This document shows, piece after piece, positions 1-55,841 of a stretch of 64,000 bases of DNA. The DNA comes from Naegleria gruberi (taxonomy: Eukaryota). Location of the stretch: NCBI GenBank assembly GCA_000004985.1, contig GG738916.1. One strand, 5' to 3'. A model generated the notes under the pieces. That model ran no database searches, had not been told where the DNA came from, and saw nothing but the letters and a program-made list of their open reading frames with translations. The position numbers and the translations under genes are program-made. Numbering within the stretch: position 1 is the first letter of the stretch; every line of letters starts with the position of its first letter.

Positions 1-2135
1 GAGCTAGTTGCTTACAAAACTCATGAGAGAATCTGCAACACTGATAAATGAGCTTCAGAGTGGAAACCACAGCAGGGAGATCTGTTGATTTTAGCAAGCG
101 AGCAAGAGGAGCCATGTTGTTGTTCCTTGTCAGAAGTCTTGCAATCATGGCTCTAACAGTATTATCTTGATTGCATTCCAATACTTCCGTGACTGGGTAC
201 TTGTCAGAGTGGAAAATGCATGGAAAAGGGAATATATCTCCTTCACTAGGGTGAACCAACTCTGCCAGGGCCATAATCGTTGCGTTGGACAGGGCAACTG
301 TGTACTTTTCTTCAGTTTTAGTGCTACTTGTATCAAGACCTGACAACAAAATCGCAAACGACTTTTCATTCATGGTTTGATAAACAGAACTTGATTGGAA
401 AGGCATTATACATGACTTGATAGCAATTTCTTGTAAACATTTCATGGTATTTAACTGTACACTTAGCGTATTGTCCAACTTATATTCCATAAGATTGTTA
501 ACAATTGAGAAAAAATCTTTGAGTGTTTGAGCCATATTTTCAATTCCAAATTGAAGGGCATAGCTCAGTGAAATTAAAGCATCCGTTATTATAGTTCTAG
601 CATCAAAGGTAGCACCTGAGAATTCCTTTAAAAAACCAAATAAATTGGCAACAAGGTTAGCATCAATCAAATTATCGGTATCAGTATCTTTACATTTCTC
701 CAAGCATTTAGAGAGAATCTTTAGTGAGGTCTGTACAGTTTTAGTCGCTTTGGTCTTGTAATCATTTTGATTTACCAAAATAAATGATGACAATTTATCT
801 AAATAAAATACATTCTTGAGGACTTTGGTTGGTCCGTTTTCTTCCTTAGACATTACTGATTCAATTTCAGATAAAGGAACTATTTACATATTTAGTTTCA
901 TTACAAATCATTAATTACTTACTTTCCCTAGTGTGTTCTATTACTTTCTTTACATGATGCCCAGATTTAGCTATTACTTCTCCAGCTCTTAATCTTCTCT
1001 GGTTATAGACTATTTTATCAAAATCATGTATTCTCTTTCTTATTAAACTACTCTTCGATTCTCTTTCTCGTTGGTCTCTAAAAAGGTGATTAAAAAAGTT
1101 GTAAAATGAAAAGCTCACTTACCTCTCCTCTCTTGTTTCTTGAAGAAATGGGTGGTCCAATAATCTTGGCCAATCAAGTCTTTGGCTTGGTGACTTTGTT
1201 AATAGACCTTTAAGAAAACTTCTCAATGTTGGACTTATGTATGGTGGATATTTTACAGTGTCTTTTACAATTAACTGAATTAATGAAAAGAAATTGTTTG
1301 TATAAAATGGTGGTTTTCCAACCACCAACTCGAACAATATAATTCCTAACGACCACAGGTCAACTGTATGATTATAGGGATGCTCTTGGACAAGCTCTGG
1401 AGCCATATACAGAGGAGTACCTTTAATAGATGTCAACATCATGGTATTGTTTGACATTACTCTAGCAAATCCAAAATCGCAAAGCTTTACAGTACCATCA
1501 GCTCCAATTAGAATATTTTGTGGTTTCATGTCTATTAAAATGCTTCCCATACAGAATGATTACGAGTACTTACCTCTGTGAATAATTCTATTCGAATGAA
1601 TGTAATATAAGGCACTCACAAGCTGTCTTGCAATTTTGACTACTATTTCCTCAGGCAATCTTTCGTCATCTTCCAAAATTTCGTACAATTCTCCCTGTGC
1701 ATACTCCATCACAACACAAAATTCCTCGTTCGTTTCAAAAGAATCAAGAAGCAATACTATATTTTCATGATCCAACTTTCTTAGAATATTAATTTCCTGT
1801 CTCAATGTATTTAATTCCTTCTCATTCTTTCCCTTCTTTGGAATAAACTTTAAAGCCACAGTTTGGCTTGTTTGTTTTCTCCTTCCCTTGAACACTCTAC
1901 CAAAAGATCCCTCTCCAATTAAATCCAAAACATGATAATCATCAATGGAACTTCCCTTCTGAGCAACCATTGTTCTCGGTGTAATTGCACTCGTTTCATT
2001 ACTATTCGCATTAACTACCAATAATTGTTGTCGTTGTTGTTGAGGTGAGGGTGATAAAGGTCTTGCCTGTTGTTGTTGTTGATTGTTCATCCCCGCAACA
2101 GCAAGTGAGGGTTTTGCTGATGAGGGTCTTTGCAT
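1..2135 (-). CDS. tsuA: Fused-family Ser/Thr protein kinase (STK36/Fused ortholog, Dictyostelium tsunami-like). N-terminal kinase domain plus start of the long C-terminal region; the 3' part runs off the window start.
   Basis: Exons on the minus strand, derived by hand: 2135..1574, 1531..1123, 1077..923, 880..1. Introns 1573..1532, 1122..1078 and 922..881 all have GTAAGT donors and AT-rich ...AG acceptors. The HRD motif is re-formed across intron 1 (IIHR|DMKPQNILI). DFG (KLCDFGFAR), APE and the C-lobe segment [55 protein letters not shown] match Fused/STK36 closely. Exon 880..1 is an uninterrupted ORF (…[24 protein letters not shown]…) absent from the ORF track because it has no stop inside the window. 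A-rich context before the ATG at 2135. Confidence 0.8.
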
Positions 2136-4194: not shown

Positions 4195-6612
4195 ATGTCA
4201 CTTGTTATGTTCAAAGTTCAACCTGTCTGTCAAAATCAAAAAACATCAAAAAAAATGTTTTGCTTTCTCTTGCCCAATCGGAATAGTAGAAATAACAACA
4301 ATACCATCACTTCCATCTCTACCACTTCAAATGTAAATGACCACCTTTCGTCCGAATTATTGTCAATTATACTTTCGTATTTTTCATTCGAAGAGAAAAT
4401 TAGTGTGATGAGATTTGTTTCTAAAACTTGGTTTACTTTCTGTTGGATTAGTACTGATTCCATCAATATTGATGCTAAATGGAGTGAACAATATGTAAAA
4501 TATATTGTAAACAAAGTTATTCAAAAACAAACTCTTCCATATTTGGAAGAATTGACTGTTTCTTCAGAACATGCTCTTACAAATGATTTTCTAGTGGGTG
4601 ATTTCCTAACAAAATCAAGAAAATTGCAAAGACTCTTCTTGAAACAACCCATCAATTCATCTCAATTATTTAATGTCACCAATCATTTGAATAATTTGAC
4701 AAACATTTATTTGAATATTCATAATGTTAAGAATGAAACTCTCATTTCAACATTTAAAGATTTGGATTTTAATGATTTGAGACCAAAGACTGTAATATTG
4801 CCAAAACTCAAGTCGTTAACTTTACAAAATGCACATTTGGATGCTGAACATTCAGCATCGATCCTATTTCTCTTCCTTTTTAAGAATATTTTAGTGAACT
4901 TTTCTAATCATTTGCAATCCAGAACTGATCTTCCATCTACCATTGATTGTAATTTGTTGGAAGAAGTTGAATTAATCAAGTGTGATGGAATTGATGAGAT
5001 TTTTGAAAAATTGGAAAAGATTACAAAAGAATATTGTGAAAAGGAATTAAAGATTTATGGATCTACTGTTGAAAAATCATTCAGAAATTGCATTCCCCTC
5101 AATTCATTGACATTCAAGTTTTGTTCTGATGTTGGAGACAAGGCATGTGTTTCTAGTTCCAAATTATTTAAGAATCTCAACAAGTTGTGGTTTGATAAGA
5201 ATAAGAAACCAACAGAGTTGACCTTTGGTGTTGCTCCACAAAGTGGTTTTACAGGTATTTTGCACGAGAACAATGGATTGGTGTCTGTCTTGTATCAATT
5301 CAGAGATTCTTTGCGGAGTTTAAAGCTGTCAGAGTTTCTTTTCCATACATCAACCACTCCAGAGGATACACCTTACAATTTTACAAAAGTATTGAGTTTA
5401 TTGACGAATTTGAAAGATATTCAACTTGATTTAGGAAGCACCAATACATCAGTCTCGACTCAATCTGTATTTTTAGCTCAGAACATGTTTGAAATTTCGA
5501 ACAGTGTTGAAAGAATAGTTCTCAATGAATGTGGTGATATATTGACACAAGAATTTTGGGATGTCATGACTGGAAACAATGTTAAAGACGAGACTACCAT
5601 TTTTTATCCTAATCTACACACACTCACTGTTCACAGTGGCAAAATGTATAACATTACCTCTAGTTTAATTAGAGAAAATGCATTCCCTAAATTGGAAAAT
5701 GTTACCTTTGACTATTGTTGCAGAATTGAGAGTTTGTACAAGGATGCAAAAGAATCCTCAACTTCAACCTTCGAACAGAATGAAGAAGTCATCACCACCA
5801 ACAAGAAACAATTTAAAAACATTACATTCGATAGATGTATCAGATTGAAACAAGGAATGAATCAATTTATTTCCATGTGCAATCCAAAACTGATTGATAC
5901 GTTTGACTTTTTGCAAATGAAAGAATGCACACGTTATGATTGGTTAGGTAAATTGACCAGTGTGAAGCATGTCAACTTGACCAGCAATATTAATCTCAAG
6001 GATGATGATTTGAAGTATTTGGCAAATTGTGAACAACTTGTCTCACTTTCTCTAGCTCACAACAAGACTCTGAATGGTTCTGGACTCAAATACCTGGCCG
6101 ATTCTACAAGAATTTGTGAAACTTTGCAGTTCCTTAATGTAGATTGGTGTTCCAAATTTGAAGATCAAGCTCTAGAGCATATTTCAAAGTTTACCAATCT
6201 AAGACAATTACACATTTTACATGTAAAGATATTGTCTCGCTTTGATTTATTGAAGAGCTTAACCAAGTTGGAAACTCTGTTGCTTGTTCGTTGTTTCAAC
6301 TTGTCTGACGAGAGTATTATTCCAGTCATTGAAAATTGTAAAGATCTGAAGGTGTTATCACTTCATGGAGGGCATCACGGTTACAATGAAGCCATGTCCA
6401 ATAAGATTTTGAAAGCAATTTCTCAAAATTTACACAATATCAGACATTTGACTGTTAATTTTGCTCCAATCACCAACGATGGCGTTAAATTGCTTGCCAA
6501 ACTTCATTACTTGGAATATTTGGATGTAATGAGAAGTAAGGCATCCGATAAGATTTTAAAATACTTCCCAAACACTTCAGTTGTTCTTGATATCAAACAA
6601 ATATCCCAATAA
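4195..6612 (+). CDS. F-box/LRR-repeat protein (FBXL-like; cysteine-containing LRR subtype).
   Basis: 805-aa ORF. It has an F-box-like segment (LLSIILSYFSFEEKISVMRFVSKTWF). C-terminal repeats with the LRR_cc signature (LKYLANCEQLVSLSLAHNKTLNGSGLKYLADS…LQFLNVDWCSKFEDQALEHISKFTNLRQLHI…). Confidence 0.75.
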   Translation: MSLVMFKVQPVCQNQKTSKKMFCFLLPNRNSRNNNNTITSISTTSNVNDHLSSELLSIILSYFSFEEKISVMRFVSKTWFTFCWISTDSINIDAKWSEQYVKYIVNKVIQKQTLPYLEELTVSSEHALTNDFLVGDFLTKSRKLQRLFLKQPINSSQLFNVTNHLNNLTNIYLNIHNVKNETLISTFKDLDFNDLRPKTVILPKLKSLTLQNAHLDAEHSASILFLFLFKNILVNFSNHLQSRTDLPSTIDCNLLEEVELIKCDGIDEIFEKLEKITKEYCEKELKIYGSTVEKSFRNCIPLNSLTFKFCSDVGDKACVSSSKLFKNLNKLWFDKNKKPTELTFGVAPQSGFTGILHENNGLVSVLYQFRDSLRSLKLSEFLFHTSTTPEDTPYNFTKVLSLLTNLKDIQLDLGSTNTSVSTQSVFLAQNMFEISNSVERIVLNECGDILTQEFWDVMTGNNVKDETTIFYPNLHTLTVHSGKMYNITSSLIRENAFPKLENVTFDYCCRIESLYKDAKESSTSTFEQNEEVITTNKKQFKNITFDRCIRLKQGMNQFISMCNPKLIDTFDFLQMKECTRYDWLGKLTSVKHVNLTSNINLKDDDLKYLANCEQLVSLSLAHNKTLNGSGLKYLADSTRICETLQFLNVDWCSKFEDQALEHISKFTNLRQLHILHVKILSRFDLLKSLTKLETLLLVRCFNLSDESIIPVIENCKDLKVLSLHGGHHGYNEAMSNKILKAISQNLHNIRHLTVNFAPITNDGVKLLAKLHYLEYLDVMRSKASDKILKYFPNTSVVLDIKQISQ

Positions 6613-20075: not shown

Positions 20076-21069
20076 TTAATAATTATCAATGTAGGCAGCT
20101 CTATCATTAGCTCTATTCAACCATCCTTGCAAGAATTTGTTATTGGCAGTTCCTGGTCTTCCCCAATACAAGTAATCTTGTCTGTGTCTTTCGTTTAATT
20201 GTCTGGCGAAAGCTTTTGGATCTTGTCCATTGTAACCACCAAATTCATTAAGGTATTGTCTTGATCTACCAGTACCAGAGTTGACAGCAATATCAGAACA
20301 GACATAGAAAGCAGGTTGTGGTAAGTTAGAACATCCTCCAGGTCCAAAATAATTTTCAGAATATAATTGAGCTGCACTTGATTTGTAAAGTGATGGATTT
20401 TGGTTATAGGCATAATAGCAAAAGTCAGCTGGATGACCAGAGAAACCATTATTAAATGGTGCAAAGAAGCCATTTCTATTATTCCAACATTCTCTGTAAA
20501 ATTTCAAAATTTCAGTTTTTCGAATACAATTGAAAAGAAACTTACGATGGAGTAACACCCATACATGTATAACCAATCTTTCCTTGGAATTCATTACCAG
20601 AATCACTTGCCCAATTTTGACATCTTCCTTCACTCTTGAATATTTCTGCCAATGTTTCAGCTGCCTTATCACCAGTCTTGCTGTCAGGTCCAGAATATGA
20701 TTCTTGACAGGCCATCTTTAAAAATTGAGCAGAAACCCATTGATTATCTCCAATACGAGCCCACTTGACACCATTAACATTACTAGTTTCGTATACAGTT
20801 ACTTGAGTTTCTGGTCCTAAAGTTTTAACAACTTGTCCACCAGGAGAAGTTCTAACATTCAATGCATTATCAACATTGGTACAACGAGTTTCAGGCCAGA
20901 ATGATTCACTATCAGACAATCCAGAAAAAGAGGATTTGGTCAATTGGTGTCTAATTTCTTGAACGATAGCTTTGGCCAATCTTCTTTCCAAGCTCAAGGC
21001 ATTCAAGCTGCTTGCAACCAACAGGACAGAAAACAACACGGTAGCAACAATGAGTGTGCTAGATTTCAT
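20076..21069 (-). CDS. Secreted protein: signal peptide + bacterial-type SH3 (SH3b-like) domain + C-terminal lysozyme/peptidoglycan-hydrolase-like domain. 2 exons, about 313 aa.
   Basis: Exons (minus) 21069..20546 and 20493..20076, intron 20545..20494 (GTAAGT…TTTTACAG). Frames of the two track ORFs (20542..21114 and 20076..20672) join exactly. Signal peptide MKSSTLIVATVLFSVLLVASSLNA. SH3b-like segment NVRTSPGGQVVKTLGPETQVTVYETSNVNGVKWARIGDNQWVSAQFL. C-terminal Cys/Gly/aromatic-rich domain (GYTCMGVTPSECWNNRNGFFAPFNNGFSGHPADFCYYAYNQNP…) of bacterial flavour; exact family not assignable by eye. The upstream M at 21114 is probably 5'-UTR. Confidence 0.6.
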
Positions 21070-21567
21070 TATTGTGTTATTTTTTTTGTGAGATGCTTTT
21101 TCGTTACTAGACAACGCTGCATTCTTGATGATTCACCCACTTTCGTACATGTGATGAATTTAGCCAATTTACCCTTGAGAAATTATAATTATCTCTCTGA
21201 AGTTATTTTGAACCATTTATTTGCTTTCAAATATCACCAAGTTCAAATCAAAATAAATAGAAAAATATTGTAATAATGAAAACCTAAATTATTAAGGTAA
21301 TACACTCAAAAGTTCAGACTTTATCATCCAATACATTCTAAAACAAAGACCTGCAACTCTTTCAATATTTGCAACTGTTGTAATTGATTCAGTATTGCAG
21401 AATTATTATTGGTGGGTTGCAACACACAAATTCAGCACTGCACTGTTACATTCTTAATAAGGTTACGTTCTGAATATAATCTTGAAGCATTAAATTGTCA
21501 AAGATGAAATATTCAGCTAAATGCATCCTAAAAGTCTTTTCGTGCCCTTTTTCAAAAAATTAAAAAA

Positions 21568-23320
21568 ATGCTTTCTTTTTTACGCAAGGCTTTGACACAC
21601 AACAATAACAATAATAATAACAATAAGAATAACAATACTGATAACAATAATAATAATAATAGTGATAACAATCATTTTATTCCTAATGATATTTTAATAA
21701 TAATATTTCAATTTCTTAATCAACAAGATTATATAAAAATATCATTTGTTTGTAGATATTGGAGATTTGTTGTTCAACAACCATTCCGAAAGGAATTTAC
21801 AAATTTTATTTTAAACTCTTCATATTCAATAGTTTATTGTACATTTATTATTAATGCATTTGAGTTTTTTAAATTCTTTTCTTCCATAACATTATAACAC
21901 TGTACCTGAATCAACATTTAAAACTCTGCTTTCTTCAATGAAATTACAAAGTTTATTTATTGATTCTTGTGTTGTTAAAAATAATATACCATTCAATTCT
22001 GTAAAACAATCTAATATAACTGAATTAGGATTAAATTGTAAAATGAAAAAGAAAGATTTACGTGCTTTATTTATTGTAATTCCAAATTTGAAACATTTAA
22101 GTTTAGGAATGGTAGTAACCGAATGTTTAATTAACACAGAATCATTTCTGAGTACACATTGTCATAAATTAGAAACACTCCATTTACAATTATTACCTGA
22201 AAATCAAAAAAAAATTGTAAAATTATTACATGGAATATTTAATCCATCAACAACAATATCCAATCTCATTGATATTAGAATATTTGTAACAGATAATAAT
22301 CCAACAAGTAATAGAAAATTAAATAATTTTACATTTAATTTTAATTCATTTCCAAATTTAAAATATTTATTTCTTGATATTACCTATATTTATACATTAG
22401 AATCAATTAGTAATGTATTAAATTCAAATAATATTTCAAAATTACAAGAATTTGGATTTGGAACTATTAGAAAAGCTATTGAAAAATTACAATTTAATTC
22501 GAGTGAAAATTTACAAAATTTAAAAAAATTATTTTTAAATAGAACAGAAATGATGACAAATATTGATAATCTTCCTTCATTAGAATTATTATATATAGAT
22601 GAATATGCAAAAAAACATTATTCCGCTACAAAATATTCAAAACCATGGAATTTAGCATCTAATGTGAAAATGCCATCTCTAAAATATTTACATTTAAATC
22701 TTTTTAATGAAACTCATTTACCTGATCGATTAAATGTGGAACCATTTAAAAATATTAAATATTTTTATTTTGAATCTGAATATAATATTGATTTATCAGA
22801 ATTGAGTAAATTAAATTTAGAAATATTAATTCTTAAAATTTCTGAAGAATATAATAAGAATATACTTCATCACATTTCTAAAATATCAACATTGAGAGAT
22901 TTAACATTTAGTAATCCTATTAGTGAAATTGATTTGAAATTACTTTGTAAATTACCAAATTTAGAATATCTGAATATTAGATTGGAATTTTATAGTGAAA
23001 CATCTTTTACTTTTAATTCACTAACTACACTCTCAATTCATTCAAAAAATTTGAAAGGATTAAATTTCTTTCAAATATCAAATTTACCAAAATTTAAAAC
23101 TTTACTAATTCGTAATCCTTATGATAATAACTATACATGGTGGTTGCAACCATTATTTCCAAATTTACAAATAATTAAAGCAAGTACTGACAGTTTTGGA
23201 ATATTTTTAACATCTCAATATAATGATGATATGAATTTTGGTGAGTATGAAGTTTCACAAAGAGCAGCAAATCATTTCCAAAATGAAAACGTATGGCTCT
23301 TTCCAAAAAAATTTATTTAA
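21568..23320 (+). pseudogene. F-box/LRR protein, paralog A of the 27373..29145 gene, disrupted by an 8-bp indel (frameshift) at about 21885-21890.
   Basis: About 95% nucleotide identity to 27373..29145 over gene plus about 150 bp of 3' flank. Paralog B reads cttccataacattatttttccataatactgtacc where A reads cttccataacattataacactgtacc. This splits A into ORFs 21568..21897 (F-box part, IPNDILIIIFQFLNQQDYIKISFVCRYWRFVV) and 21938..23320 (LRR part). Confidence 0.6.
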
Positions 23321-24031
23321 TATTAAAGCTCTGTATCAGAGGTTTCTCCTTGGTCACAGTTGATTTTTTAGAAGGATCTCCTTCAGCCAATATCTTTGGT
23401 TTCAAATGGTGAATTCAAGCAAGCCAATGCTGAGAAGGCCAAAGTTGACAATGATTATGTTTGTAAACATTTCAAATCCTATTTTTCAAAAAATTCAAAT
23501 AAAAAGTTGGTACATCATCATAGTTGTTATTTATCATCATTATAAAAGCCTCTTGGATGGTTCAAGAGATGCTGAATTCAAATGTTATAGAGATTGAACA
23601 GAATATTGTTGTACATTATATTTATTGTACCCAAGAAGGAACTTTTGGAATAAAGGACAGTTCCTTCAAGTTTACCAATTCAAATGCCTTTCATTTGGAA
23701 TAAGCCAAGCTCCCAGGAACTCACCAAGATTATGAAAAAACTGGTAACCAAGTGGAGACAACAAGGTATTATTTTGTTCCTAAAATTCAGAAAGAAAAGG
23801 GTGTCTTTACTCCCTGACTCAAACTGAAGCAATTTAGACTTCAAACGTAATATTTCCATCATTTGCAAGCCTAAGAACTGAAAAAGGATAAGGAATTGCT
23901 TTAGTGTTGAGAAATGAAGGAGAATTTTGTGAAGAATTAAGACAGGCCAAAATTAAATCCTTACAAGTCTGATTTCTAACTTGGAAAATTTATTTATTTA
24001 TTGATTGGCCCATGGTTTTACCTCATTTCCA

Positions 24032-26504
24032 TTATTTTCTGTTTACTCTCAACCAATAATCGATAATAACTTTCAAGAAATTATTGCATGGTATATTTTC
24101 TTGACAAGATAATTGGATTTTTTGTAAATAATCAAGAGTTAAATTATTTGAGCAAAATATCTTGAAATACTCAACTAGCTCTCTACAATCATTATTATTT
24201 TGTGAAACTGAAGCTAAATTTAGTAATATAATAAATTCAGTATCATTAATGGAATATAATTTTTCAACAATCAAGATACAGACATGTTTAACAATCCATG
24301 TAATATCCAATTGTTGTGCAATGATTAAAATACCAACCAAATCATTCAATTTAAGGTAATTGAACTCATATCCATAACATAATTTACATATGATTTGTAA
24401 TATTGTATTAATTTTAGCTGAATTATTGAACAAATCAATAATCCAATGATCTGATACCATCATTTCAATGAATTCATACAAGTCAACCACATTATTTTCA
24501 TTATTTTTAAATAGAATATTTAAAACTGAACTATGAACGGATAGAATTGATTTATGTAATTGCAATAATTCATTTTTATCCTTATTAATAATTACATGAA
24601 TATCACTATTACTTTCATCATTATATAATAATTTTAATGATTCAGTTACATTTTTGGCAATATTTTCAAGATTATCAATTTTATAATTAATTTGTTTAAA
24701 TGGTTGTTTAACATTATTAATTTTATCTTGAATAATTTCGAATAATGGATCTGATTTCAATAAAGTTGCATTTTCTTTAATAAATGCAAGACACTTATTT
24801 GCCAACAATAGCAAAATACTATTTTTAGCTTGTTTTAAAATATTTAAAGAAAGATAATTATTAACTATTCGTAAAATCCTCATAATGTTATCTACATTCA
24901 TTCTATTTGAAATGTCATTAAATAACAATAATTTAATTTCATGCTTGATATCATTAATATCATTTAATATAAATAGACAAGTTACTAAATTTAATTCTAA
25001 TTCTCCAAATGAAATGAAATTAATAAATTTATCATAATTACTAAATAAATCATCTATATTTAAACAATTTAAATCAATAATTGCGTTTTTAATTAAATAA
25101 TATAAAACTTTTTGGTCATTCTCATTTAAATGTTCAATTATATCATTTTTAATTAAATTATAAAAATCATTTGAAATATTTTTTAATAAATTTAAATCTA
25201 AATAAAAATTAGAATTAATTTCATAATTGAACTTAAAATTATCAGTTACCATAATATCATTAATCTTGAGACTATTCTCATTATCTGTTTCATGAATAAA
25301 AATAGTAAAATTTTTACCACAACAAATTTGAATTTCATCACCTTCCTTAATAGTAAATGGTAATTCAATTAATTTTAGTTCATTGGCTGATTTATTAGCA
25401 TATCCTAATTCGCCAAATTCATTAGATCCAAATGAATAGAACTTTTGGTCTACTGTTTGCAAAACACTGTGGAAGGTACCACTTTCCATATTAATAATAT
25501 TATCCATATTTGCTTGTTTAGAATTATAGTCAATATATTTGCATTCATTATTATATAACGATAAAATTTGATATTCATTCAATATTAATTGATCATAATT
25601 TTTCTCAAATTTAAACTCATTATAATTATTATGTAATTTAATTACTTTTTTAGGATTGTAATAATCTGCCAAGCCATAATCAATTAAAGTATAATCTAGA
25701 ATTTACAATAGAAGAATCATTAAAAATAATGAAACTAGTTCTTCCATTACATTTAATATCCTTAATATCTTCAATATTCTTATTAACTAATTTGGTAACA
25801 TTCATAAAATTATTTAAGGTAAAATAATCTTCAACATGTAATTTACCATTTACAATACTTTCAATTACAAATGGTTGGAATGATTGTGAATATTCATTCA
25901 TTCCACAAACATACAATTCATTTTCAAATGTTGTGAAAAATGTCAAATGAAATGTTACAAATATTTTGTTTACTTTTAACTTTTCTAAATTTGTATTTTG
26001 TAATAAATTAACGGCTACATCATTTGATTTTTTAGCAATGATAGCCAATTGTCCATGTTCATTATTACCAATACCAAATATGGAATTTAATTTAGATAAA
26101 AATACAACATGTTCTTTACCAATCGCAAAATCAATAATTTTGTCACTAGTATTTAAATTATTAAATTTAATCAATGTAGGAATATTAGAAATATTATTAA
26201 TAAATGAACAATTTCCCATTTTGTAAACATATCCCTTACGCGTAAGAAATATGCACAATTGATCTTGACTTTTAAATTTAATAATCTTATCATTAATTAA
26301 ATAATTTTGTAAATAATCAATTTTATCAAAACATGTATCATTTAATTTTGTAACAGTAATAATATCACTTTGTTTCTTCCAGAATCCATCTCCGCATCCG
26401 TAAACAAATTGTGATTTAGAAGAATTAATACCGAAAGCAGTGTTATTAGGTTCTGTTTCGTCGTCCACTACTTGATCAACATGGTGAATGGTGAATTGAT
26501 TCAT
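24032..26504 (-). CDS. RCC1-repeat and BTB-like domain protein (RCBTB-like), present as two ORFs in different frames.
   Basis: ORF 26504..25680 (true ATG at 26504) and ORF 25672..24032 (track start is a TTG). RCC1-like blades (GIGNNEHGQLAI, YSFGSNEFGELGY). A BTB-like segment (LQLHKSILSVHSSVLNILFKNNENNVVDLYEFIEMM). Very Asn/Ile-rich. The junction at 25672..25682 needs a -1/+1 shift or a non-canonical short intron. Confidence 0.5.
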
Positions 26505-27372
26505 TTTTTTTTATAGAGTGGTCTCTCGGTTGTTATTGATACAAGAGACATTAATAAACTTGTACACCTTTTATTTTGTTATAGATTGTTACAACAAATA
26601 TTGTGCTTACTCAGCATTGCATTCATTGGTTTTGTCTAGCTAGATCGGCGGAAATGAAATCTCATTCGTGTGATTGATGTGAGAGATGTTACGCGCCAAA
26701 ATTTCTACACCAAAAAATAAGCAAAGCCACTTTTTCGAACTCTTATTTGAAAATCCATTAAGGAAATTAAACTCTCAGTACTTTCAAGAAATACCTCTAC
26801 TCATCATCATTGGTATTTAATTCAATCAACATAAATCAGCATCAATTTGGAATATTTCAATTAGAGTAGCTGGGATACATCTCACCAAAAGTAATAAGAG
26901 CAATATTGTGTGATGGTGTTTCTTCTTGGAATGAAGAAAGTTGCCAACCTCGGAAATATCAAACATTATCATTAAGCTGTAATTCAACATCACATTATAT
27001 TTATTTTTATATTAATAGTAATACTTGTTCATTAGGAATTTCTTCAACTAATTAATATATTTTCATCATGAATTCCAAAAACATTGTATGATTATTAGGG
27101 ATGTCTAATCTAATATCACCATCAAGAGAGTTGGATTATTTGTATTCATCGAGTTGTGGAATTTTACTTCATCATACCTTATCATCAGCAAGCTCACTTC
27201 AGATCATTAAGGTAAATATCTTAATGGTCATCATCAACCAGTTGCAGATTAAAACTGTGATTTAATGTCTCAATTAAGTTGATTGCTATGTTTGGAAAAT
27301 ACACGAACGATTCAATATTTCAATTTTTAAAAAGGAAGGAAGATTCTTCATGACTTTCAAAAAATTAAAAAA

Positions 27373-29145
27373 ATGCTTTCTTTTTTGCACAAGGCTTTGA
27401 CACACAACAATAACAAGAATAACAATAATAATACTAATAATACTAATAACAATACTGATAACAATAATAATAGTGATAACAATAATTTTATTCCCAATGA
27501 TATTTTAATAATAATATTTCAATTTCTCAATCAACAAGATTATATAAAAATATCATTTGTTTGTAGATATTGGAGATTTGTTGTTCAACAACCATTCCGA
27601 AAGGAATTTACAAATTATATTTTAAACTCTTCATATTCAATAGTTTATTGTACATTTATTATTAATGCATTTGAGTTTTTTAAATTCTTTTCTTCCATAA
27701 CATTATTTTTCCATAATACTGTACCTGAATCAACATTTAAAGCTCTACTTTCTTCAATGAAATTACAAAGTTTATTTATTGATTCTTGTGTTGCTAAAAA
27801 TAATATACCATTCAATTCTATAAAACAATCTAATATAACTGAATTAGGATTAAATTGTAAAATGAAAAAGAAAGATTTACGTGCTTTATTTATTGCACTT
27901 CCAAATTTGAAACATTTAAGTTTAGGAACGGTAGTAACAGAATGTTTAATTAGCACGGAATTATTTCTGAGTACACATTGTCATAAATTAGAAACACTCC
28001 ATTTACAATTATTACCTGAAAATCAAAAAAAAATTGTAAAATTATTAAATGGAATATTTAATCCATCAACAACAACAATATCCAATCTCATTGATATTAG
28101 AATATTTGTAAAAGAATATTATACAACAAGTAATAGAAAATTACATAATTTTACATTTAATTTTAATTCATTTCCAAATTTAAAATATTTATTTCTTGAT
28201 ATTACCTATATTTATACATTAGAATCAATTAGCAATGTATTAAATTCAAATAATATTTCAAAATTACAAGAATTTGGATTTGGAACTATTAGAAAAGCTA
28301 TTGAAAAATTACAATTTAATTCGAGTGAAAATTTACAAAATTTAAAAAAATTATTTTTAAATAGAACAGAAATGATGACAAATATTGATAATCTTCCTTC
28401 ATTAGAATTATTATATATAGATGAATATGCAAAAAAACATTATTCCGCTACAAAATATTCAAAACCATGGAATTTAGCATCTAATGTGAAAATGCCATCT
28501 CTAAAATATTTACATTTAAATCTTTTTAATGAAACTCATTTACCTGATCGATTAAATGTGGAATCATTTAAAAATATTAAATATTTTTATTTTGAATCAG
28601 AATATAATATTGATTTATCAGAATTGAGTAAATTAAATTTAGAAATATTAATTCTTAACATTTCTTTAAAATATAATAAGAATATATTTCATCACATTTC
28701 TAAAATATCAACATTGAGAGATTTAACATTTAGTAATCCTATTAGTGAAATTGATTTGAAATTACTTTGTAAATTACCAAATTTAGAATATCTTTATATT
28801 ACATTGGAATTTTATAGTGAAACATTTTTTACTTTTAATTCACTAACTACACTTTCAATTCATTCAGATAATTTGAAAGAATTAAATTTCTTTCAAATAT
28901 CAAATTTACCAAAATTGAAAACTTTACTAATTCGTAATCCTTTTGATAATAACCATACATGGTGGTTGCAACAATTGTTTCCAAATTTACAAATAATTAA
29001 TGCAAGTACTAACAGTATAGGAATATTTTCAACATCATCTCAATATAATGATGGTATGAATTTTGGTGAGTATGAAGTTTCACAAAGAGCAGCAAATTAT
29101 TTACAAAATGAATATGTATGGCTCTTTCCAAAAAAATTTATTTAA
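27373..29145 (+). CDS. F-box/LRR-repeat protein (intact paralog B).
   Basis: 590-aa uninterrupted ORF. Poly-Asn N-terminus, F-box (IPNDILIIIFQFLNQQDYIKISFVCRYWRFVV), then LRRs (LPNLKHLSLGTVVTECL…LPNLEYLYITLEF…). Confidence 0.75.
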   Translation: MLSFLHKALTHNNNKNNNNNTNNTNNNTDNNNNSDNNNFIPNDILIIIFQFLNQQDYIKISFVCRYWRFVVQQPFRKEFTNYILNSSYSIVYCTFIINAFEFFKFFSSITLFFHNTVPESTFKALLSSMKLQSLFIDSCVAKNNIPFNSIKQSNITELGLNCKMKKKDLRALFIALPNLKHLSLGTVVTECLISTELFLSTHCHKLETLHLQLLPENQKKIVKLLNGIFNPSTTTISNLIDIRIFVKEYYTTSNRKLHNFTFNFNSFPNLKYLFLDITYIYTLESISNVLNSNNISKLQEFGFGTIRKAIEKLQFNSSENLQNLKKLFLNRTEMMTNIDNLPSLELLYIDEYAKKHYSATKYSKPWNLASNVKMPSLKYLHLNLFNETHLPDRLNVESFKNIKYFYFESEYNIDLSELSKLNLEILILNISLKYNKNIFHHISKISTLRDLTFSNPISEIDLKLLCKLPNLEYLYITLEFYSETFFTFNSLTTLSIHSDNLKELNFFQISNLPKLKTLLIRNPFDNNHTWWLQQLFPNLQIINASTNSIGIFSTSSQYNDGMNFGEYEVSQRAANYLQNEYVWLFPKKFI

Positions 29146-29282
29146 CATTAAAGCTCTGTATCAGAAGTTTCTCCTTGGTCAAATCTGAATAGTGAATTCA
29201 AGTAAGGCCAAAGTTGACAATGTTCAATGAATAATGTTTGTAAACATTTCAAATCCTATTTTCAAAAAATTCAAATAAAAAA

Positions 29283-30829
29283 ATGTCAAGATTAACTTTT
29301 CCGTTACTTCTTGCTACATTGATAATCGCTTTCGTTTTGGTGTCATCAGCATCATTATCGGATCGGGTTAATGCCTTGACTCCACTCATAAAAACATCAA
29401 AATTATTCTCCATCAAACAACAGAATAATAACAAGCAATTATTTATTACTGCTACAATTTATCCTAATTTTAAAATTGTTCATGGAGTGAAGGATTTAAA
29501 ATTTGGTTTGGCTACTATTGAATATAATGATCAGTTACATGCACAAGGATTTGATACATTGGTTTTAGAGACGAGACAATCTACAAGTTTGGTGGAAGAC
29601 TTTGCTATTGCTCAGGGGGCTGGATATTTGGAAGGCTATTTGACAATGCAGAGAATTTACAATCATTTTGTGAATATTAATAGTGTATCGTGGTGGAATG
29701 CTAAGGAGAATAGAACTTTGGGAATGTCAAGTAATATTCGTCAATTTTTCAAAGATCAAAANACATGGATTTTACAACAAGTGAGCCAACACATGAATGG
29801 AACAACAGAAGAGGATTTATATTGGCNNNNNNNNNNNNNNNNNNNNNNNNNNNNNNNNNNNNNNNNNNNNNNNNNNACTGATATTATTTCAGTCATACCG
29901 TTGGGTGGGTATTTAGTGCCTTGACAAGAATGATGAAGACATACACTCTCAATTTTGCAAATCCACTCACAAAGTCTCGCACAGTGACATTTTCGAGTTA
30001 TCCTGGATCATTAGGCAGTAATGATGACTATTATCAAACTGATGGTGGTCTTGTTGTTATCGAGACAACCATTGGCATTTTGAATAATACTCTCTACGAT
30101 AATACTCATCCTCAATCATTGTTGAGTTGGTTTAGAGTTGTCTTGGCCAATAGAATGGCTACAAGTGGCAGAGAATGGTTTGAAGTTTTTAGTATTAATA
30201 ATGGAGGAACCTATAATAATGAGTGGATGATTCTCGATGTGAAAAAGTTTATTCCTGGTCAAGCTCAATTGACAAAGGATTTATTCTGGGTAATTGAACA
30301 AATACCTGGAACAGTGGTGGGATCAGATCAAACAAATCTTCTCTCCACTCGCGGATACTTTGCATCTTATAATGTTCCTTTCTATCCTTCCATTTATGAA
30401 AAAACTGGATATGCAGAATATGTGAAGAAATTTCCAGAGACTTATCATTATATGAGTTATGATAAGTGTGCCAGATCTGAAATATTCAGAAGAGATCAAC
30501 ATTTAGTCAAAGATCTGCCATCCATGCAACGAATTATGCAATATGATAATTATCATGATGAATTTTCATTCGGAAATCCTGACTGGGTAATCTCAGCAAG
30601 AGACGATTTAGCTCCAAATGTTCCAAATGGACAAAAGAGTTGTGGAGGTGGATATGACTGTAAAATATCATCTATTTCTAAATGGAATTTTGTATTTTTC
30701 AGAAGTGGACCAGCTCACCAATTTACACCTGTTTTCAAGTTTGAGAATCAATGTGGACCTCAATACTCACATGTTGGATTGCCTTTGGAGTGGAACTTCC
30801 CTTGGATTCAATTGGATAGCAGAGTTTAA
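29283..30829 (+). CDS. Phospholipase B-like protein (PLBD/LAMA family), interrupted by assembly gaps.
   Basis: Signal peptide MSRLTFPLLLATLIIAFVLVSSAS. PLB-like motifs ATIEYNDQLHAQGFDTLVLETRQST…AQGAGYLEGYLTMQRIYNHF. Second track ORF 29921..30829 (…WFRVVLANRMATSGREWFEVFSINNGGTYNNEWMILD…) continues the same protein. The frame break coincides with N at 29762 and the 50-N gap 29827..29876. Confidence 0.75.
29827..29876. other. Assembly gap (50 N) inside the PLB-like gene; single N also at 29762.
   Basis: Run of n. Confidence 1.
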
Positions 30830-31322: not shown

Positions 31323-31382
31323 ATAAATTAAATTCCTGATTGGTTGTTAATTCGTCACCAGCAAAAAAACTTTACAAAAAAA

Positions 31383-32504
31383 ATGGCGCAAAATATCTTT
31401 GAAGTTTTGCCCAACGATTTGATCGGAGAAGTTCTCTCTCATATCAGCCATGTTGAATTACTTGTTACCTTCTCTCAAGTTTGTAAATATTGGCAGAGAA
31501 TTTGTTATGAATTAATTTGGAATTATTATGAAGAATCATTTACACATATTACGAATAATCCGAAACAAGTATTTGTTGATTTGGATCAATTTTTACATTC
31601 AAAAGAAGGAAAGAAATTTATTAGATATTTACTACGTAAACAGGTTTATGAATTTGCTTGTAAATTGGCTCAGAGTTCAACACTTTCCGATAAATCATGT
31701 AATGTGAAAGAAAAGTGGGTCGATGTGGAATTGAGTATATTGAAGGGATGTTTTAAAAGATTCTCTGATTTGGCAGAGCAACCAACGATTCCAATTCTAC
31801 AACCAAAAGTTTACAAAGATCCACCACCAACATCAGGATTGTTCAGTAGTGCTTTATCATTTATTGGATCAATGTTTTCAAAGAATTCATCAAGTAGTTC
31901 CAAAGCTACACCAATTAGTGTTGAGCCAAAACCAGAATATGATTTTCTAACAAAGGTACTTTTGGATGGCGACTATTCAAGTGGAAAGACTTCATTGCTT
32001 AATTGTGCAATGAATGAAACGCCAGTGGATCCATCAAATAATCATCATATCACAACGATTGGAATGGATTTTGCCATTAAGAATTTCCATTTTGGAGATA
32101 CCACTAAAGTCAAGCTGGTAAGTAACATTTCAAACTGACTTTGCAAACTCTAACAGCAATTGTGGGATCAATGTGGACCAGAACGTTTTCGTCAAATAAC
32201 TCTTCCATTCTATAGACATGCATCGGTTATTCTCTTACTGGTCGATCCTTCATCAACTCATGTTCTTCGATCAATGAATGAAAAAGTGGAAGTAATCAAA
32301 AATAATGCTACAAAACCAGAAGTTATTCTAATCACAACAAAGAAAGATAAGAAAGATGAAGTGAGATTAATTTCAAATGAGCAAGCTGACAAATTAGCCT
32401 ATGACAATTTTGGAACTTTACATTTGGATATTACCAATACTCAATTGGAAGAACCCAAAAATATTATTTGGTATTGTGCTTTACTCAAGTATTTACTTTC
32501 TTAA
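31383..32504 (+). CDS. F-box domain + Rab-like small GTPase domain protein with a degenerate catalytic motif. 2 exons, about 360 aa.
   Basis: Exons 31383..32117 and 32157..32504, intron 32118..32156 (GTAAGT…TAACAG, 39 nt). F-box-like LIGEVLSHISHVELLVTFSQVCKYWQRI. GTPase motifs: G1 GDYSSGKTSLL, switch-I TIGMDF, KVKL|QLWDQCGPERF spanning the splice (G3 DTAGQ replaced by DQCGP, so the catalytic Gln is Pro), and G4 TKKD instead of NKxD. Confidence 0.65.
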
Positions 32505-34468: not shown

Positions 34469-34734
34469 TCATTTCTAATTAATTTAATAGCTCCAACTGA
34501 ATACTAAAGCTCAAGCTTTGCGTGTTGGTTGCATTTATTTTCCATCACAATGCTGAAACAACTTACCAAATGTGACTTACAAGACATTGTAATGTTGTCT
34601 TTGAATTGTAGCTTGTAATGGAAAAATGGCGTTCAAAAAAAAAATAGCATGTTGAATAGCTTGCTGTCCATCATTCTGAGAAAATATCAATCCATCAATA
34701 ATAGCACAACTTGATAATAATTAATAGTATTAAC

Positions 34735-36459
34735 ATGATGAATTATTGTAAAATATTACAATTGAGTCAAGATATATTATGCAATGTAATTATTCCCTAC
34801 TGTAATTCACATACTTTGATTGCTTTTGCTGGGGTTTGTTCCGAGTGGAGAAGAATTGTCAAAGAAAGTGATACTAGAGGAATCAAGTGTGTAAATGTGA
34901 AGCATAAATCAGCAAGATACAGATTTGAATCATTAAATGATGAGGAGGAAATGAGTGGATTAATGAAAGGTGACCTCTTGCAAATATTCTCACAAATGGA
35001 AATAAGAACTTTTCCAGAATTTGAGGAAACTATTTTTCTTAACAGATCTTTTTTTAAAAAGTTATTCAATTCAAAAAAACTGGAATTATTGACATTACAA
35101 AATACTAATATTATTACAATTATTATTCCTGCTAAAGATATTTCACCAATTATAACTCTGAAATTAATAAGTGTTCAAATGGAAGTTGAAAATTTAAGAA
35201 CTATATGCACTAATTTACTAAATTTAACAGATCTAACATTAATTGATAATGGGCTTGATTATAAGGCAACACTTGTATTGACCAAATCAAAGTTGACTCG
35301 TCTAACACATCTTACACTTCGTAATAGAATTGGAGATGAAGGTGTTAATCAATTATTGACTCAACCAGGAAATATTAGAACTTTGAAACATATTAACTTT
35401 GTTGCAAGACCTCCAGAATCATCTCAAAAAGACAATATTTCATACATAGCACCAATTAATAGTTCAATGTTACCAAATCTTGAATCTTTTTCAATAGATT
35501 TGGAGATGTCTACAAAATCAATTATGAATGTGTTGAATAGTGGTAATTCATGGAGAGAATTGACTTTTTTTCACTCACATTTAAATAGTGAATGTATGAA
35601 ACAAATTGGAAAAATTCATACACTCCAAAAACTTTGTTTTCAATCAAAATTGGAAGTAGATTTACCTTACAGATGTTTATTACCTCTTCAAAATAATCTC
35701 ACTCATCTAGAAATTGGTCCTGTTGACAATAATACATTCTCCGAATTGAGTGAGGGTAACTTTGTTAATTTGAAATATTTATGCATTCTAAATACAAAAC
35801 AAGGAAATGAAATAGATGAATATGTAATACGAAAATTCTGTGAAAAAGTTCAAAATCTAACCTATTTAGAGTTAAGAAGAGTAGTAATGAAAAGTGGATG
35901 TATGAATCACATATCCCAACTTTCAAAAATTACTGATTTACGAATTATTCAAACACATATTGATAGTGAAGAAATGAAATATTTATCAAGAATGAGTAAC
36001 TTGACAACATTATATTTAGGAAGTGAAATTACATTTGATGGAATTTCATATTTATGCAACGGAAATTTACTAAATTTACACACTTTAAAGTTTACAAGAG
36101 TTCCTTCAGGCAAGTTCAAATATGACTCAAAGTTTACATCAAGTTTAGCTCATTCAAATTTTCCAAAATTAAGATATTTGAGTTTTTATTATGAATTTGA
36201 TATTTATGCAACTGATATGTTACATTCTGGTCCATCTCTGAAAAATTTGATACATTTAGAACTTTATTGGGTAGATTTAACAATTACACCTATTTTAGTA
36301 CCTATAGTCAATAATCTGGCGCCTAAATATCTGACTGGAATTGGAGGCTTTCCAAAGCTTAAAGCTTTCTCACCAGAAGCCATACCACAATTAAGACAAC
36401 CAACAAAAATCAACTATATGACTGGACATACCGATATACGAATTGATGAATTTATTTAA
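34735..36459 (+). CDS. F-box/LRR-repeat protein (member of the AGVCSxWRRIV subfamily), copy 1 of an inverted pair.
   Basis: True ATG at 34735 (track start 34711 is TTG). F-box LSQDILCNVIIPYCNSHTLIAFAGVCSEWRRIV, then LRRs. About 98% amino-acid identity with the product of 52527..54365 on the opposite strand. Confidence 0.75.
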   Translation: MMNYCKILQLSQDILCNVIIPYCNSHTLIAFAGVCSEWRRIVKESDTRGIKCVNVKHKSARYRFESLNDEEEMSGLMKGDLLQIFSQMEIRTFPEFEETIFLNRSFFKKLFNSKKLELLTLQNTNIITIIIPAKDISPIITLKLISVQMEVENLRTICTNLLNLTDLTLIDNGLDYKATLVLTKSKLTRLTHLTLRNRIGDEGVNQLLTQPGNIRTLKHINFVARPPESSQKDNISYIAPINSSMLPNLESFSIDLEMSTKSIMNVLNSGNSWRELTFFHSHLNSECMKQIGKIHTLQKLCFQSKLEVDLPYRCLLPLQNNLTHLEIGPVDNNTFSELSEGNFVNLKYLCILNTKQGNEIDEYVIRKFCEKVQNLTYLELRRVVMKSGCMNHISQLSKITDLRIIQTHIDSEEMKYLSRMSNLTTLYLGSEITFDGISYLCNGNLLNLHTLKFTRVPSGKFKYDSKFTSSLAHSNFPKLRYLSFYYEFDIYATDMLHSGPSLKNLIHLELYWVDLTITPILVPIVNNLAPKYLTGIGGFPKLKAFSPEAIPQLRQPTKINYMTGHTDIRIDEFI

Positions 36460-48089: not shown

Positions 48090-49646
48090 ATGCGCCTGTT
48101 ACCTTTTCTAAAGTTGAATAACAAACCAAGAAGAGAATCAGCACGGCAATTATTGCTCTCTGATGATATTATTTACATTATTCTTCCATGCTTGCATCAA
48201 AATGAAATTATTAAATTTGCTGGTGTTTGTTCATCGTGGAGAAGAATTGTTATTGATGCTTCCGAAGGTAGTTTCTCTAATGTATTATATCATAGGAGTG
48301 AATTTAAGAAAATACCAATGAAAATGGAGAACAAGAGTGAAAACCAACAAGTTTTATTAATGTTTTCAAAATTTGATTTCTCTGATTGCAATTTAACTTT
48401 ATCACAATTCAAAAGAATATTCATGTCAACTAAATTGACATCATTGACACTATGCCGTACAAATATTATGATTTTCCCTTCTGAATCACTCACATTTCTA
48501 ACCATTAATCAAATTAATCTTTCTCTAAACAATATTGAACAATTAATATTTCAATTTAAAAATTTGAAAAATTTAATTTTATTACATACTAATGTTGATT
48601 GTGAGTGCATTGATCTTATTATTAATAATAATCAATTAGAGAGTCTTATTATTGAGCAGAAAATAATATCTGAGAGAGGATTCTCTGCCGTGTTCAATCC
48701 TCATTTCAATTCATCACTCAATACCCTTCATGTTAAGAGTTTGAACACAGAGGAATTTCTTAGTTTTAATATTGATACACTTAAATTTCCTCATTTGAGA
48801 ACATTGGAAATTATTGGATTATTTGATAGATTAGTGCTTGAGAAAATATTTAATTATGGTCTTGAATTAACGTATTTAGCAATATTGACAACGAGCATTA
48901 TGAGCTACGATGTTGATTTTTCATATGTACATCAAATACCCTCTCTCAAATCATTTTCCTATAATGGACCTCTTAATAATGTAGATGTTCAACAATTTCT
49001 TAATAAGGATATGGAACATATTCTGTTTTCAGATCTTGACACAGTATCATCATTGAATTTATCTAGAATACTTTGTGACAAATATACTAGTTTAATTTCA
49101 TTAGAGCTTTCAAATTGTGAATTACCTACAAATTGTGGACAATACATTTACAATTTAAAACACTTGACAAAACTAGATATGGGATATAGTAAAATACAAT
49201 CAACAATTTGTGGATATATTTTCAAGATGAAAACTCTGGTTCATCTCAATCTAAAATGTTGTAAATTAAGAGATGACGGATTGAAGTATTTAGAACATCA
49301 CAACTTGGATAATATACAGACATTAATTCTAGAAGAAAACGAATTTACATATATTGGCTTTGAATACTTAATTCGTGCCAAATTTCACCGTCCATTGAAA
49401 TATCTTTCCATTTTTGACCATATTAATAATAAGGGAACAATACATTTTGACACTGACCACACTCTTAATGTTAAAACACTCTTTATTTGTGATAGGTATA
49501 TAGATTATAGGGGAGTAATTTCTATTCTACAAAATTGTATAATAGAAGAATTAATTATCAAGAAACCACAATTACTCTATCTTGGATCACACTCCATTAA
49601 ACAACTTTCAAAGAAGAATCACGTGAAGGTAGTAATGTTTATATAA
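48090..49646 (+). CDS. F-box/LRR-like protein (AGVCSxWRRIV subfamily, divergent member).
   Basis: 518 aa. F-box-like LLSDDIIYIILPCLHQNEIIKFAGVCSSWRRIV, then LRR-like units (LKNLILLHTNVDCECIDLII…LTKLDMGYSKIQ…LVHLNLKCCKLRDDGLKYL). Confidence 0.65.
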   Translation: MRLLPFLKLNNKPRRESARQLLLSDDIIYIILPCLHQNEIIKFAGVCSSWRRIVIDASEGSFSNVLYHRSEFKKIPMKMENKSENQQVLLMFSKFDFSDCNLTLSQFKRIFMSTKLTSLTLCRTNIMIFPSESLTFLTINQINLSLNNIEQLIFQFKNLKNLILLHTNVDCECIDLIINNNQLESLIIEQKIISERGFSAVFNPHFNSSLNTLHVKSLNTEEFLSFNIDTLKFPHLRTLEIIGLFDRLVLEKIFNYGLELTYLAILTTSIMSYDVDFSYVHQIPSLKSFSYNGPLNNVDVQQFLNKDMEHILFSDLDTVSSLNLSRILCDKYTSLISLELSNCELPTNCGQYIYNLKHLTKLDMGYSKIQSTICGYIFKMKTLVHLNLKCCKLRDDGLKYLEHHNLDNIQTLILEENEFTYIGFEYLIRAKFHRPLKYLSIFDHINNKGTIHFDTDHTLNVKTLFICDRYIDYRGVISILQNCIIEELIIKKPQLLYLGSHSIKQLSKKNHVKVVMFI

Positions 49647-55790: not shown

Positions 55791-55841
55791 TNNNNNNNNN
55801 NNNNNNNNNNNNNNNNNNNNNNNNNNNNNNNNNNNNNNNNN
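55791..55841. other. Assembly gap (51 N) truncating the first NHL/EGF gene copy.
   Basis: Run of n. Confidence 1.

Follow-up and report, generated by a model that had tools for sequence, protein, structure and literature searches.

In Skp1-Cul1-F-box (SCF) ubiquitin ligases, the F-box docks on Skp1 and a solenoid of leucine-rich repeats (LRRs) selects the substrate, while BTB proteins serve as adaptors of Cul3 ligases. F-box, LRR, and BTB adaptors are also common in giant viruses and intracellular bacteria; in those that live in amoebae, the ubiquitin-ligase adaptors are AT-rich, contain repeats, and often occur in paralogous clusters. F-box families have been described as undergoing birth-and-death evolution, in which tandem duplicates and pseudogenes arise and the domains that bind substrates change fast (PMC3719486, PMC8120010, PMC8665587). 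Clusters of LRR paralogues have been reported in Naegleriavirus (PMC11043551), and effectors with F-box and LRR domains in Legionella (PMC12482156). Here, we describe a duplicated F-box/LRR gene, with copies designated A and B, in a 64-kb window of nuclear DNA from the heterolobosean amoeba Naegleria gruberi NEG-M. The window is the whole stretch that was analyzed (64,000 nucleotides of contig GG738916.1); it is gene-dense, has few introns, and has a guanine-plus-cytosine (GC) content of ~33%. We consider it likely that the pair arose when a native F-box/LRR gene, specific to this lineage, was recently duplicated at the DNA level, and that copy A was recently disabled and copy B is working.

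The pair resembles the birth-and-death pattern of F-box genes in plants and Caenorhabditis in being a local direct duplicate, with one copy frameshifted and several F-box/LRR genes nearby. It also shares with them a low ratio of nonsynonymous to synonymous substitution (dN/dS) in the F-box part and a ratio near 1 in the substrate-binding repeats. It differs in its host, a heterolobosean amoeba, in its extreme codon composition, and in having no detectable relatives in other Naegleria beyond the F-box region. Unlike the F-box and LRR effectors of giant viruses and bacteria, A and B have no sequence relative in the viral and bacterial collections searched, and they sit among ordinary Naegleria genes. 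The kind of event is known, being routine gene birth and death among ubiquitin-ligase adaptors; the gene itself is species-specific and unannotated.

Results

Two Copies of an F-Box/LRR Gene Lie in a Direct Repeat

Alignment with MAFFT and blastn placed the copies in one collinear direct repeat, 21550..23505 against 27355..29281, which spans 1978 columns at 92.6% identity including gaps. The repeat unit is ~1.95 kb long, and its two copies lie 5.8 kb apart in the same orientation, with an offset of 5822 bp. A preliminary description of this DNA had proposed a direct segmental duplication of an F-box/LRR gene; the alignments, the Pfam F-box matches, and LRR-type fold matches bear this out, and the duplication is non-tandem. 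The same description put nucleotide identity at ~95%, slightly below the measured value: the coding parts (21568..23320 and 27373..29145) differ by 64 substitutions in 1753 aligned positions, corresponding to 96.3% identity. The substitutions comprise 34 transitions and 30 transversions. Four gaps interrupt the coding alignment, and copy A is the shorter sequence at each: it lacks 6 bp after 21646, 8 bp after 21893, and 3 bp each after 22247 and 23210. Only the 8-bp gap shifts the frame; the other three sit in hexa- or trinucleotide repeats.

Similarity continues into the flanks, as had been described, although the measured lengths differ from the ~15 bp (5') and ~150 bp (3') first given. On the 5' side, 18 bp are identical and are followed by ~15 bp at ~73% identity; on the 3' side, the homologous stretch is 185 bp long in A and 136 bp long in B, contains three indels, and in copy B ends 1-2 bp short of the ATG of a phospholipase B gene at 29283. 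Local alignments past both ends of the unit scored no better than shuffled sequence and gave no sign of a decayed larger duplication, and tblastx and sensitive blastn searches of the spacers added no homology. Just inside the 3' flanks, ~10 bp past the stop codon, is a palindrome capable of forming a hairpin (CTCTG TAT CAGAG in A, with one mismatch in B; 23322..23345 and 29147..29170). The ends of the unit are defined by the following features:

21550..21570, plus strand: left boundary of copy A, TTTCAAAAAATTAAAAAAATG, made up of a 12-mer with its A-run and the start codon (21550 is the first position of the blastn alignment)
27355..27375, plus strand: left boundary of copy B, TTTCAAAAAATTAAAAAAATG (blastn and 12-mer count)
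23321..23505, plus strand: 3' flank of copy A, homologous to the 3' flank of copy B, with no homology beyond 23505
23484..23505, plus strand: right boundary repeat of copy A, TTTCAAAAAATTCAAATAAAAA (boundary alignment)
29146..29282, plus strand: 3' flank of copy B, running directly into the phospholipase B ATG
From 29260 into the phospholipase B ATG at 29283, plus strand: right boundary repeat of copy B, TTTCAAAAAATTCAAATAAAAAA (boundary alignment)
29283..30829, plus strand: phospholipase B gene (Pfam Phospholip_B), with its ATG at 29283, downstream of copy B

The exact 12-mer TTTCAAAAAATT occurs four times in the window against 0.54 occurrences expected, and none of 100 shuffles reached four. 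Its four sites, at 21550, 23484, 27355, and 29260, are both ends of each unit. At the left ends, TTTCAAAAAATT continues as AAAAAAATG, which includes the start codon of the F-box gene; at the right ends, it continues as CAAATAAAAA, which in copy B leads into the phospholipase B ATG. The unit thus reaches from the start context of one gene to that of the next, and the similarity goes no further. TTTCAAAAAATT lies upstream of no other gene in the window; an A-run ahead of the ATG is common.

Copy B Encodes a Predicted F-Box/LRR Receptor

27373..29145, plus strand: copy B, intact F-box/LRR gene, 590 aa (open reading frame list, Pfam, and fold search)

Copy B had been described as intact, and it is indeed an uninterrupted open reading frame (ORF) of 590 codons. 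At its base composition (41% A and 38% T, at which ~9% of random codons are stops), a run of 590 open codons has a chance probability of ~2e-25. The gene has no introns, and its product begins with a poly-Asn N terminus, followed by an F-box at residues 40-74 and an LRR solenoid from ~110 to 545. The F-box was identified by Pfam as PF12937 (F-box-like; 32.4 bits vs. a cut-off of 24.3) and PF00646 (F-box; 31.4 vs. 20.5). Evidence for the repeats is more diffuse. The Pfam LRR_4 match scored 24.6 bits, below its cut-off of 27, and a sequence search of the PDB gave weak matches to FBXW7, Skp2, and YopM. A single-sequence AlphaFold model, with a mean predicted local distance difference test (pLDDT) score of only 49.9, has alternating strands and helices from ~110 to 545 with a period of ~22-28 residues. 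The top Foldseek matches to this low-confidence model were all LRR proteins, at TM-scores of only 0.3-0.4, and the longest, full-length fold alignments were to the F-box/LRR receptors COI1-ASK1 and D3/MAX2-ASK1. These comparisons support an F-box/LRR architecture for A and B, with the LRR part modeled and scoring below the curated threshold.

By analogy, copy B is expected to act as a substrate receptor of an SCF ubiquitin ligase. It resembles the FBXL receptors (human Skp2; plant COI1, TIR1, and MAX2/D3) in its N-terminal F-box and in an LRR solenoid of comparable overall length, the latter drawn from the low-confidence model, but it has no sequence orthology to them and its N terminus is poly-Asn.

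An exhaustive HMMER search with copy B against 1.84 billion representative proteins returned four matches with E values from 6e-5 to 5e-4: one planctomycete LRR protein, two anonymous environmental proteins, and one F-box protein from Naegleria fowleri. The last had a library-wide E value of 4.6e-4 (2e-8 in pairwise comparison) and 28% identity over 167 aa. The alignment covers residues 14-172 of B, containing the poly-Asn tract, the F-box, and the first repeats, and it crosses the position at which copy A is interrupted. The closest relatives of B, N. fowleri FDP41_000915 and FDP41_010594 (XP_044564475 and XP_044568242), share the F-box and first repeats; they differ in being 310-318 aa long, approximately half of B, and in having no similarity over its last 400 residues. 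The F-box of B also matches that of an F-box ORF at 48090 in the window. Because N. fowleri F-box proteins are the only informative relatives among the 1.84 billion proteins, A and B are best assigned, on sequence grounds, to a native Naegleria F-box family, of which they would be a lineage-specific and fast-evolving member. Other searches with B gave no relatives. A word-indexed protein search returned nothing and was probably swamped by poly-Asn words, JGI metagenomes searched with back-translated peptides gave no match, and no viral relative of B or of the RCC1-BTB protein encoded between the copies turned up in IMG/VR or among the 1.84 billion representative proteins.

Copy A Carries an 8-bp Frameshifting Gap

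21568..21897, plus strand: F-box ORF of copy A, 109 aa, ending at a premature TAA (21895..21897) that results from the frameshift (open reading frame list and Pfam)
21893..21894, plus strand: site of the 8-bp gap in copy A, where ATTTTTCC is found in B only (pairwise alignments)
27705..27712, plus strand: ATTTTTCC in copy B, the 8 bp missing from A, in codons for FFH in the linker that joins the F-box to the LRRs
21938..23320, plus strand: LRR ORF of copy A, 460 aa from its first ATG at 21938, in a frame open from 21890

An 8-bp indel in copy A had been placed near 21885-21890. Its length was correct, and pairwise alignment moves its position to 21893/21894, with a 2-bp ambiguity arising from AT microhomology. 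The claim that it separates the F-box from the LRR body also holds, since copy A now consists of a 109-aa F-box ORF and a 460-aa LRR ORF. The F-box of copy A still scores above both Pfam cut-offs (F-box-like, 35.1 bits; F-box, 33.7 bits). The product of the LRR ORF is 91.8% identical to residues 129-590 of B, and copy A contains no stop in the frame of B. A short direct repeat that had been seen in B at the lesion is present as TTCCATAA...TTCCATAA (27693..27700 and 27709..27716); the period of this repeat is 16 bp, so simple slippage would not delete 8 bp. The state of B, with the 8 bp present, is taken from sequence to be ancestral, because only B gives a continuous chain from F-box to LRR and because the N. 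fowleri F-box protein aligns across the lesion. Copy A would accordingly have lost 8 bp in the linker, which would have uncoupled its F-box from its LRRs and left B as the working gene.

Splicing was considered as a means of restoring the frame in A. There are seven GT..AG spans whose removal would do so, but each deletes coding sequence that is conserved in B and five of the seven delete the F-box core, making rescue by an intron unlikely as judged from the sequence. A search of JGI metagenomes gave no match to the DNA pattern across the lesion in either form. Set against its intact paralogue, copy A has the disabling lesion that characterizes a duplicated pseudogene in the assembly as given; most likely, it is a null allele or a pseudogene of recent origin.

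An alternative is that the 8-bp gap is an artefact of assembly or consensus calling, or is one of two alleles, with copy A really an intact second paralogue and both genes working. In this draft assembly, unsized gaps occur less than 700 bp from copy B, and consensus errors are possible between copies that share 96% identity and exceed the length of a Sanger read. Furthermore, nothing else disables A, the three remaining indels are multiples of 3, and a 1-bp frameshift in the neighboring low-GC RCC1-BTB gene could mean lower sequence quality in this AT-rich stretch. However, the loss of 8 bp outside a homopolymer would be an atypical base-calling error, and the copies are otherwise cleanly resolved by the 64 substitutions. 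The three in-frame indels all fall within tri- or hexanucleotide repeats, and slippage there yields multiples of 3 without selection. We regard an artefact as unlikely and the lesion as probably real.

Divergence and Probable Gene Conversion

Copies A and B were compared pairwise, without an outgroup, so changes are unassigned to lineage. Overall dN/dS was 0.62; the F-box part, which precedes the lesion, gave 0.20, and the LRR part, which follows it, gave 0.90. The value of 0.20 derives from 14 changes, 7 synonymous and 7 nonsynonymous, that are mostly in the poly-Asn tract. Substitutions at codon positions 1:2:3 were distributed nearly evenly (21:17:26). An overall ratio of 0.62 fits what one neutral and one moderately constrained copy would give. 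In these ORFs, a random substitution has a ~6.5% chance of producing a stop codon; by our own arithmetic, ~4 stops would be predicted from 64 substitutions if both copies were drifting, and none was seen (P ~0.015), which argues that at least one copy has been under selection.

Differences are unevenly distributed along the gene, with successive 200-bp intervals containing 13, 4, 9, 7, 1, 1, 6, 11, and 12. The longest identical run is 330 bp (28234..28563 in B; approximate P 8e-6), and codons 260-410 contain three substitutions against 16.4 expected (P = 6.5e-5). The corresponding tract in copy A is given by the 5822-bp offset:

22412..22741, plus strand: copy A side of the 330-bp identical tract, placed via the offset

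The simplest reading is that this tract was probably homogenized by recent gene conversion; strong purifying selection on the segment is the alternative. Mutation of the repeats by a process resembling repeat-induced point mutation was ruled out by the near parity of transitions and transversions (34 vs. 30).

Low GC Content Is Confined to Three ORFs

24032..26504, minus strand: gene with RCC1 repeats and a BTB domain, between copies A and B (Pfam RCC1, RCC1_2, and BTB)

The RCC1-BTB gene is split into ORFs of 274 and 546 aa by an extra T in AATTGA near 25681, and deletion of one T at this site fuses them into a single ORF of 823 aa. In GenBank, the gene is represented by EFC37655 together with a separate protein of 491 aa. 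Frameshifts in this assembly therefore affect two of the block's three genes (copy A and RCC1-BTB). The block holds two kinds of cullin-ligase adaptor, which may be coincidence.

All three genes have unusual composition. Their GC content (copies A and B and RCC1-BTB) is 21-24%, and their GC content at third codon positions (GC3) is 0.09-0.17, with depressed values at first and second positions as well, compared with a mean GC3 of 0.274 (SD 0.053, minimum 0.185) in 32 other ORFs of the window. The corresponding GC content is 31.7% in non-ORF DNA and 28-33% in the block's own spacers, and the low GC content starts and stops at ORF boundaries. Three other F-box/LRR genes in the window, with GC3 of 0.185-0.23, fall between the normal genes and A/B. 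A regional mutation bias was rejected as the cause, as it would also affect the spacers, which are 28-33% GC. Transcription-coupled mutation bias was likewise rejected, given that the coding-strand GC skew has opposite signs in A/B and RCC1-BTB. In an N. gruberi-like assembly from ENA, twins were found for all four of the normal-GC genes checked but not for any low-GC ORF; possible causes are a bias in coverage against AT-rich DNA, collapse of the assembly at the repeat, or real absence.

These properties raise the question of whether A, B, and RCC1-BTB are foreign genes, derived from an AT-rich giant virus or another donor with borrowed host-type adaptors, and since duplicated and decaying. 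The confinement of GC contents of 21-24% and GC3 of 0.09-0.17 to the ORFs, the disruption of two of three genes, the absence of twins from the ENA assembly when all four normal genes have one, and the report of LRR paralogues in Naegleriavirus (PMC11043551) are consistent with such an origin. Against it, no viral or bacterial homologue was found in the exhaustive HMMER search, IMG/VR, or JGI metagenomes, and the best match is to Naegleria F-box proteins. Of the features by which an endogenous giant virus is recognized, a composition unlike the host is present (GC3 of 0.09-0.17 vs. 0.274), but no viral hallmark genes or viral homologues were detected and the flanking genes are ordinary eukaryotic ones. 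In addition, other genes of the window have the same A-rich leader ahead of their ATG, and GC3 values of 0.185-0.23 in the other F-box/LRR genes suggest a continuum within a native family. A foreign origin is thus quite improbable, and the low-GC ORFs are more likely to be extreme members of a native, AT-rich, fast-evolving family than products of transfer. In an elaborated form, the whole 8-kb block at 21.5-29.2 kb would consist of adaptor genes captured from an AT-rich donor (e.g., a Naegleria giant virus), copied as a cassette bounded by short repeats, and now undergoing silencing and erosion. Such a capture would fit a base and amino acid composition like that of a ~20%-GC genome confined to ORFs, together with the use of the 12-mer as the start context of two genes; we give it only a slim chance.

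Mode of Copying

Under the duplication of a native gene that we favor, a unit of ~1.95 kb, comprising an 18-35 bp leader, an intronless coding sequence, and the whole downstream spacer, would have been copied to a position 5.8 kb away in the same orientation. Breakpoints would have fallen at TTTCAAAAAATT and its A-run, ahead of the F-box ATG and of the ATG of the next gene. After duplication, the copies would have diverged by ~3.7%, probably exchanging their central tract by gene conversion. Unit anatomy bounded by the 12-mer, the lack of poly(A), and the lack of a clear target-site duplication point to a short-homology-mediated event rather than retroposition. No remnants of transposons or retroelements, RNA genes, or tRNAs were found in the spacers.

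Retroposition was weighed in the form that copy A is a retrocopy of B mRNA, the unit running from a transcription start ~18-35 bp upstream of the ATG to just past AATAAA. The unit does start near the ATG, it contains almost no promoter sequence, and it ends 5 nt after AATAAA (23497..23502 in A and 29273..29278 in B). Yet, in place of the poly(A) tract by which a processed pseudogene is recognized, there are only five A's before GTTGG at 23506. There is no convincing target-site duplication; a 6-nt AAAAGT match is expected by chance in AT-rich DNA. Retroposition also leaves the 12-mer shared by both unit ends unexplained, and no reverse-transcriptase remnant was detected in the spacers. Loss of introns is unscorable as a sign of retroposition because the gene is intronless. 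An origin by retroposition is, in our judgment, very unlikely.

Discussion

A very unlikely alternative is that copy A is used in split form, as a 109-aa F-box-only competitor for Skp1, an LRR-only protein that would bind substrate without causing its degradation, or a full-length product made when ribosomes shift by +1 at the new stop (TTA TAA C). In its favor, both ORFs of A are open, dN/dS in the F-box part is 0.20, Met129 is conserved as the first ATG of the LRR ORF, the 18 bp upstream of the gene's ATG are identical in A and B, and skipping one base at the new stop would, by our own arithmetic, restore the B frame exactly with a product lacking only FFH. Against it, the F-box ratio comes from 7 + 7 changes, an ATG preceded by an ORF of 109 codons makes a poor start site, and the stop has no known slippery motif. 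The internal ATG at 21938 corresponds to Met129 of B, and no evidence was found for a separate promoter that would give an LRR-only product from it. To our knowledge, programmed frameshifting has not been reported in Naegleria.

Several observations weigh against a young native duplication followed by loss of copy A, the history that we consider likely. The first group concerns the lesion. The 8-bp gap is known from one draft assembly; runs of N at 29762 and 29827..29876 mark assembly gaps near the copies; and the independent N. gruberi-like contig that matches this region ends at 21405, 145 bp before copy A. Copy A has no second disabling mutation, and if A alone had been neutral since the duplication, the chance of finding no stop would still be 0.12-0.18. 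The data are also compatible with a copy A that was intact until lately, leaving its decay unproven, and a dN/dS near 1 in the LRR part could equally be the result of diversifying selection on two working genes. The second group concerns the copying itself. Its mechanism is deduced from anatomy alone, and 3.85 kb of unrelated sequence lies between the copies, where simple unequal exchange would give adjacent ones. Either copy may be the parent; if B is the inserted copy, it would separate the phospholipase B gene from its former promoter. Finally, low GC content limited to ORFs is unexplained by a young native duplication.

The locus also bears on the reference annotation of N. gruberi. In exact-sequence lookups of public protein collections, neither B nor the 460-aa ORF of A was on record, although the neighboring N. 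gruberi genes are. A and B therefore appear to be missing from the reference annotation, and the order of GenBank/UniProt accessions along the scaffold would leave no slot for them. The annotation thus appears to contain neither the intact 590-aa gene nor its broken twin, and it presents the RCC1-BTB gene split in two. A search of the literature on the locus tag found no mention. As a pair, A and B offer a dated snapshot of how a gene was duplicated, probably converted, and inactivated by a first hit in a protist with few data of this kind. If ORF-limited GC content of ~21% proves to be genome-wide, it would define a gene class with a distinct origin or a distinct mutational or epigenetic regime. 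Methylation and heterochromatin maps of N. gruberi have been published (PMC12344493), against which the low-GC class can be compared; the methylation status of this locus was not found in the supplements of that article.

Neighboring Genes in the Window

Four long ORFs in the window are residue-for-residue identical to the N. gruberi proteins EFC37613, EFC37616, EFC37618, and EFC37659, all of which are encoded on one scaffold of 245,038 bp. A Pfam scan of ~30 ORFs identified ordinary eukaryotic proteins, including Paf1, a CCT chaperonin, calpain, aspartate carbamoyltransferase, phospholipase B, and NHL/EGF proteins. For comparison with the splice candidates in A, a real intron was read in the CCT gene (GTTTGT...ATAG). 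Besides copies A and B, Pfam detected at least five other F-box and/or LRR genes in the 64 kb. These genes, and the assembly gaps, are as follows:

4195..6612: F-box and/or LRR gene
31344..32138: F-box and/or LRR gene
34711..36459: F-box and/or LRR gene
48090..49646: F-box and/or LRR gene
52527..54365: F-box and/or LRR gene
29762, 29827..29876, 55792..55841, 57364..58379, 60107..60156, 60230, and 63186..63680: runs of N (assembly gaps)

The phospholipase B gene appears split into two ORFs because it is interrupted by the runs of N at 29762 and 29827..29876. By eye, the end of the ORF at 31344..32138 resembles a putative small-GTPase P-loop motif, and this ORF probably continues beyond an intron.

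Between 21405 and 18826 of the window, the independent N. gruberi-like contig from ENA (L002) is a 98.5% match. The rest of this contig (2583..4192, 1.6 kb, with a gene call cut at 506 aa) is without a counterpart anywhere in the window, and the sequence suggests a structural difference between strains or haplotypes. Within the matching part, at 20076..21114 on the minus strand (335..1327 of the ENA contig), is a secreted lysozyme-like gene with a bacterial-type SH3_3 domain and a GH108 domain; it is a lateral-transfer candidate, with bacteria or phage as the possible donors. In the window, the gene is divided between two ORFs that overlap in different frames. The ENA contig likewise has two gene calls, indicating that the split, whether an intron or a frameshift, is reproducible.

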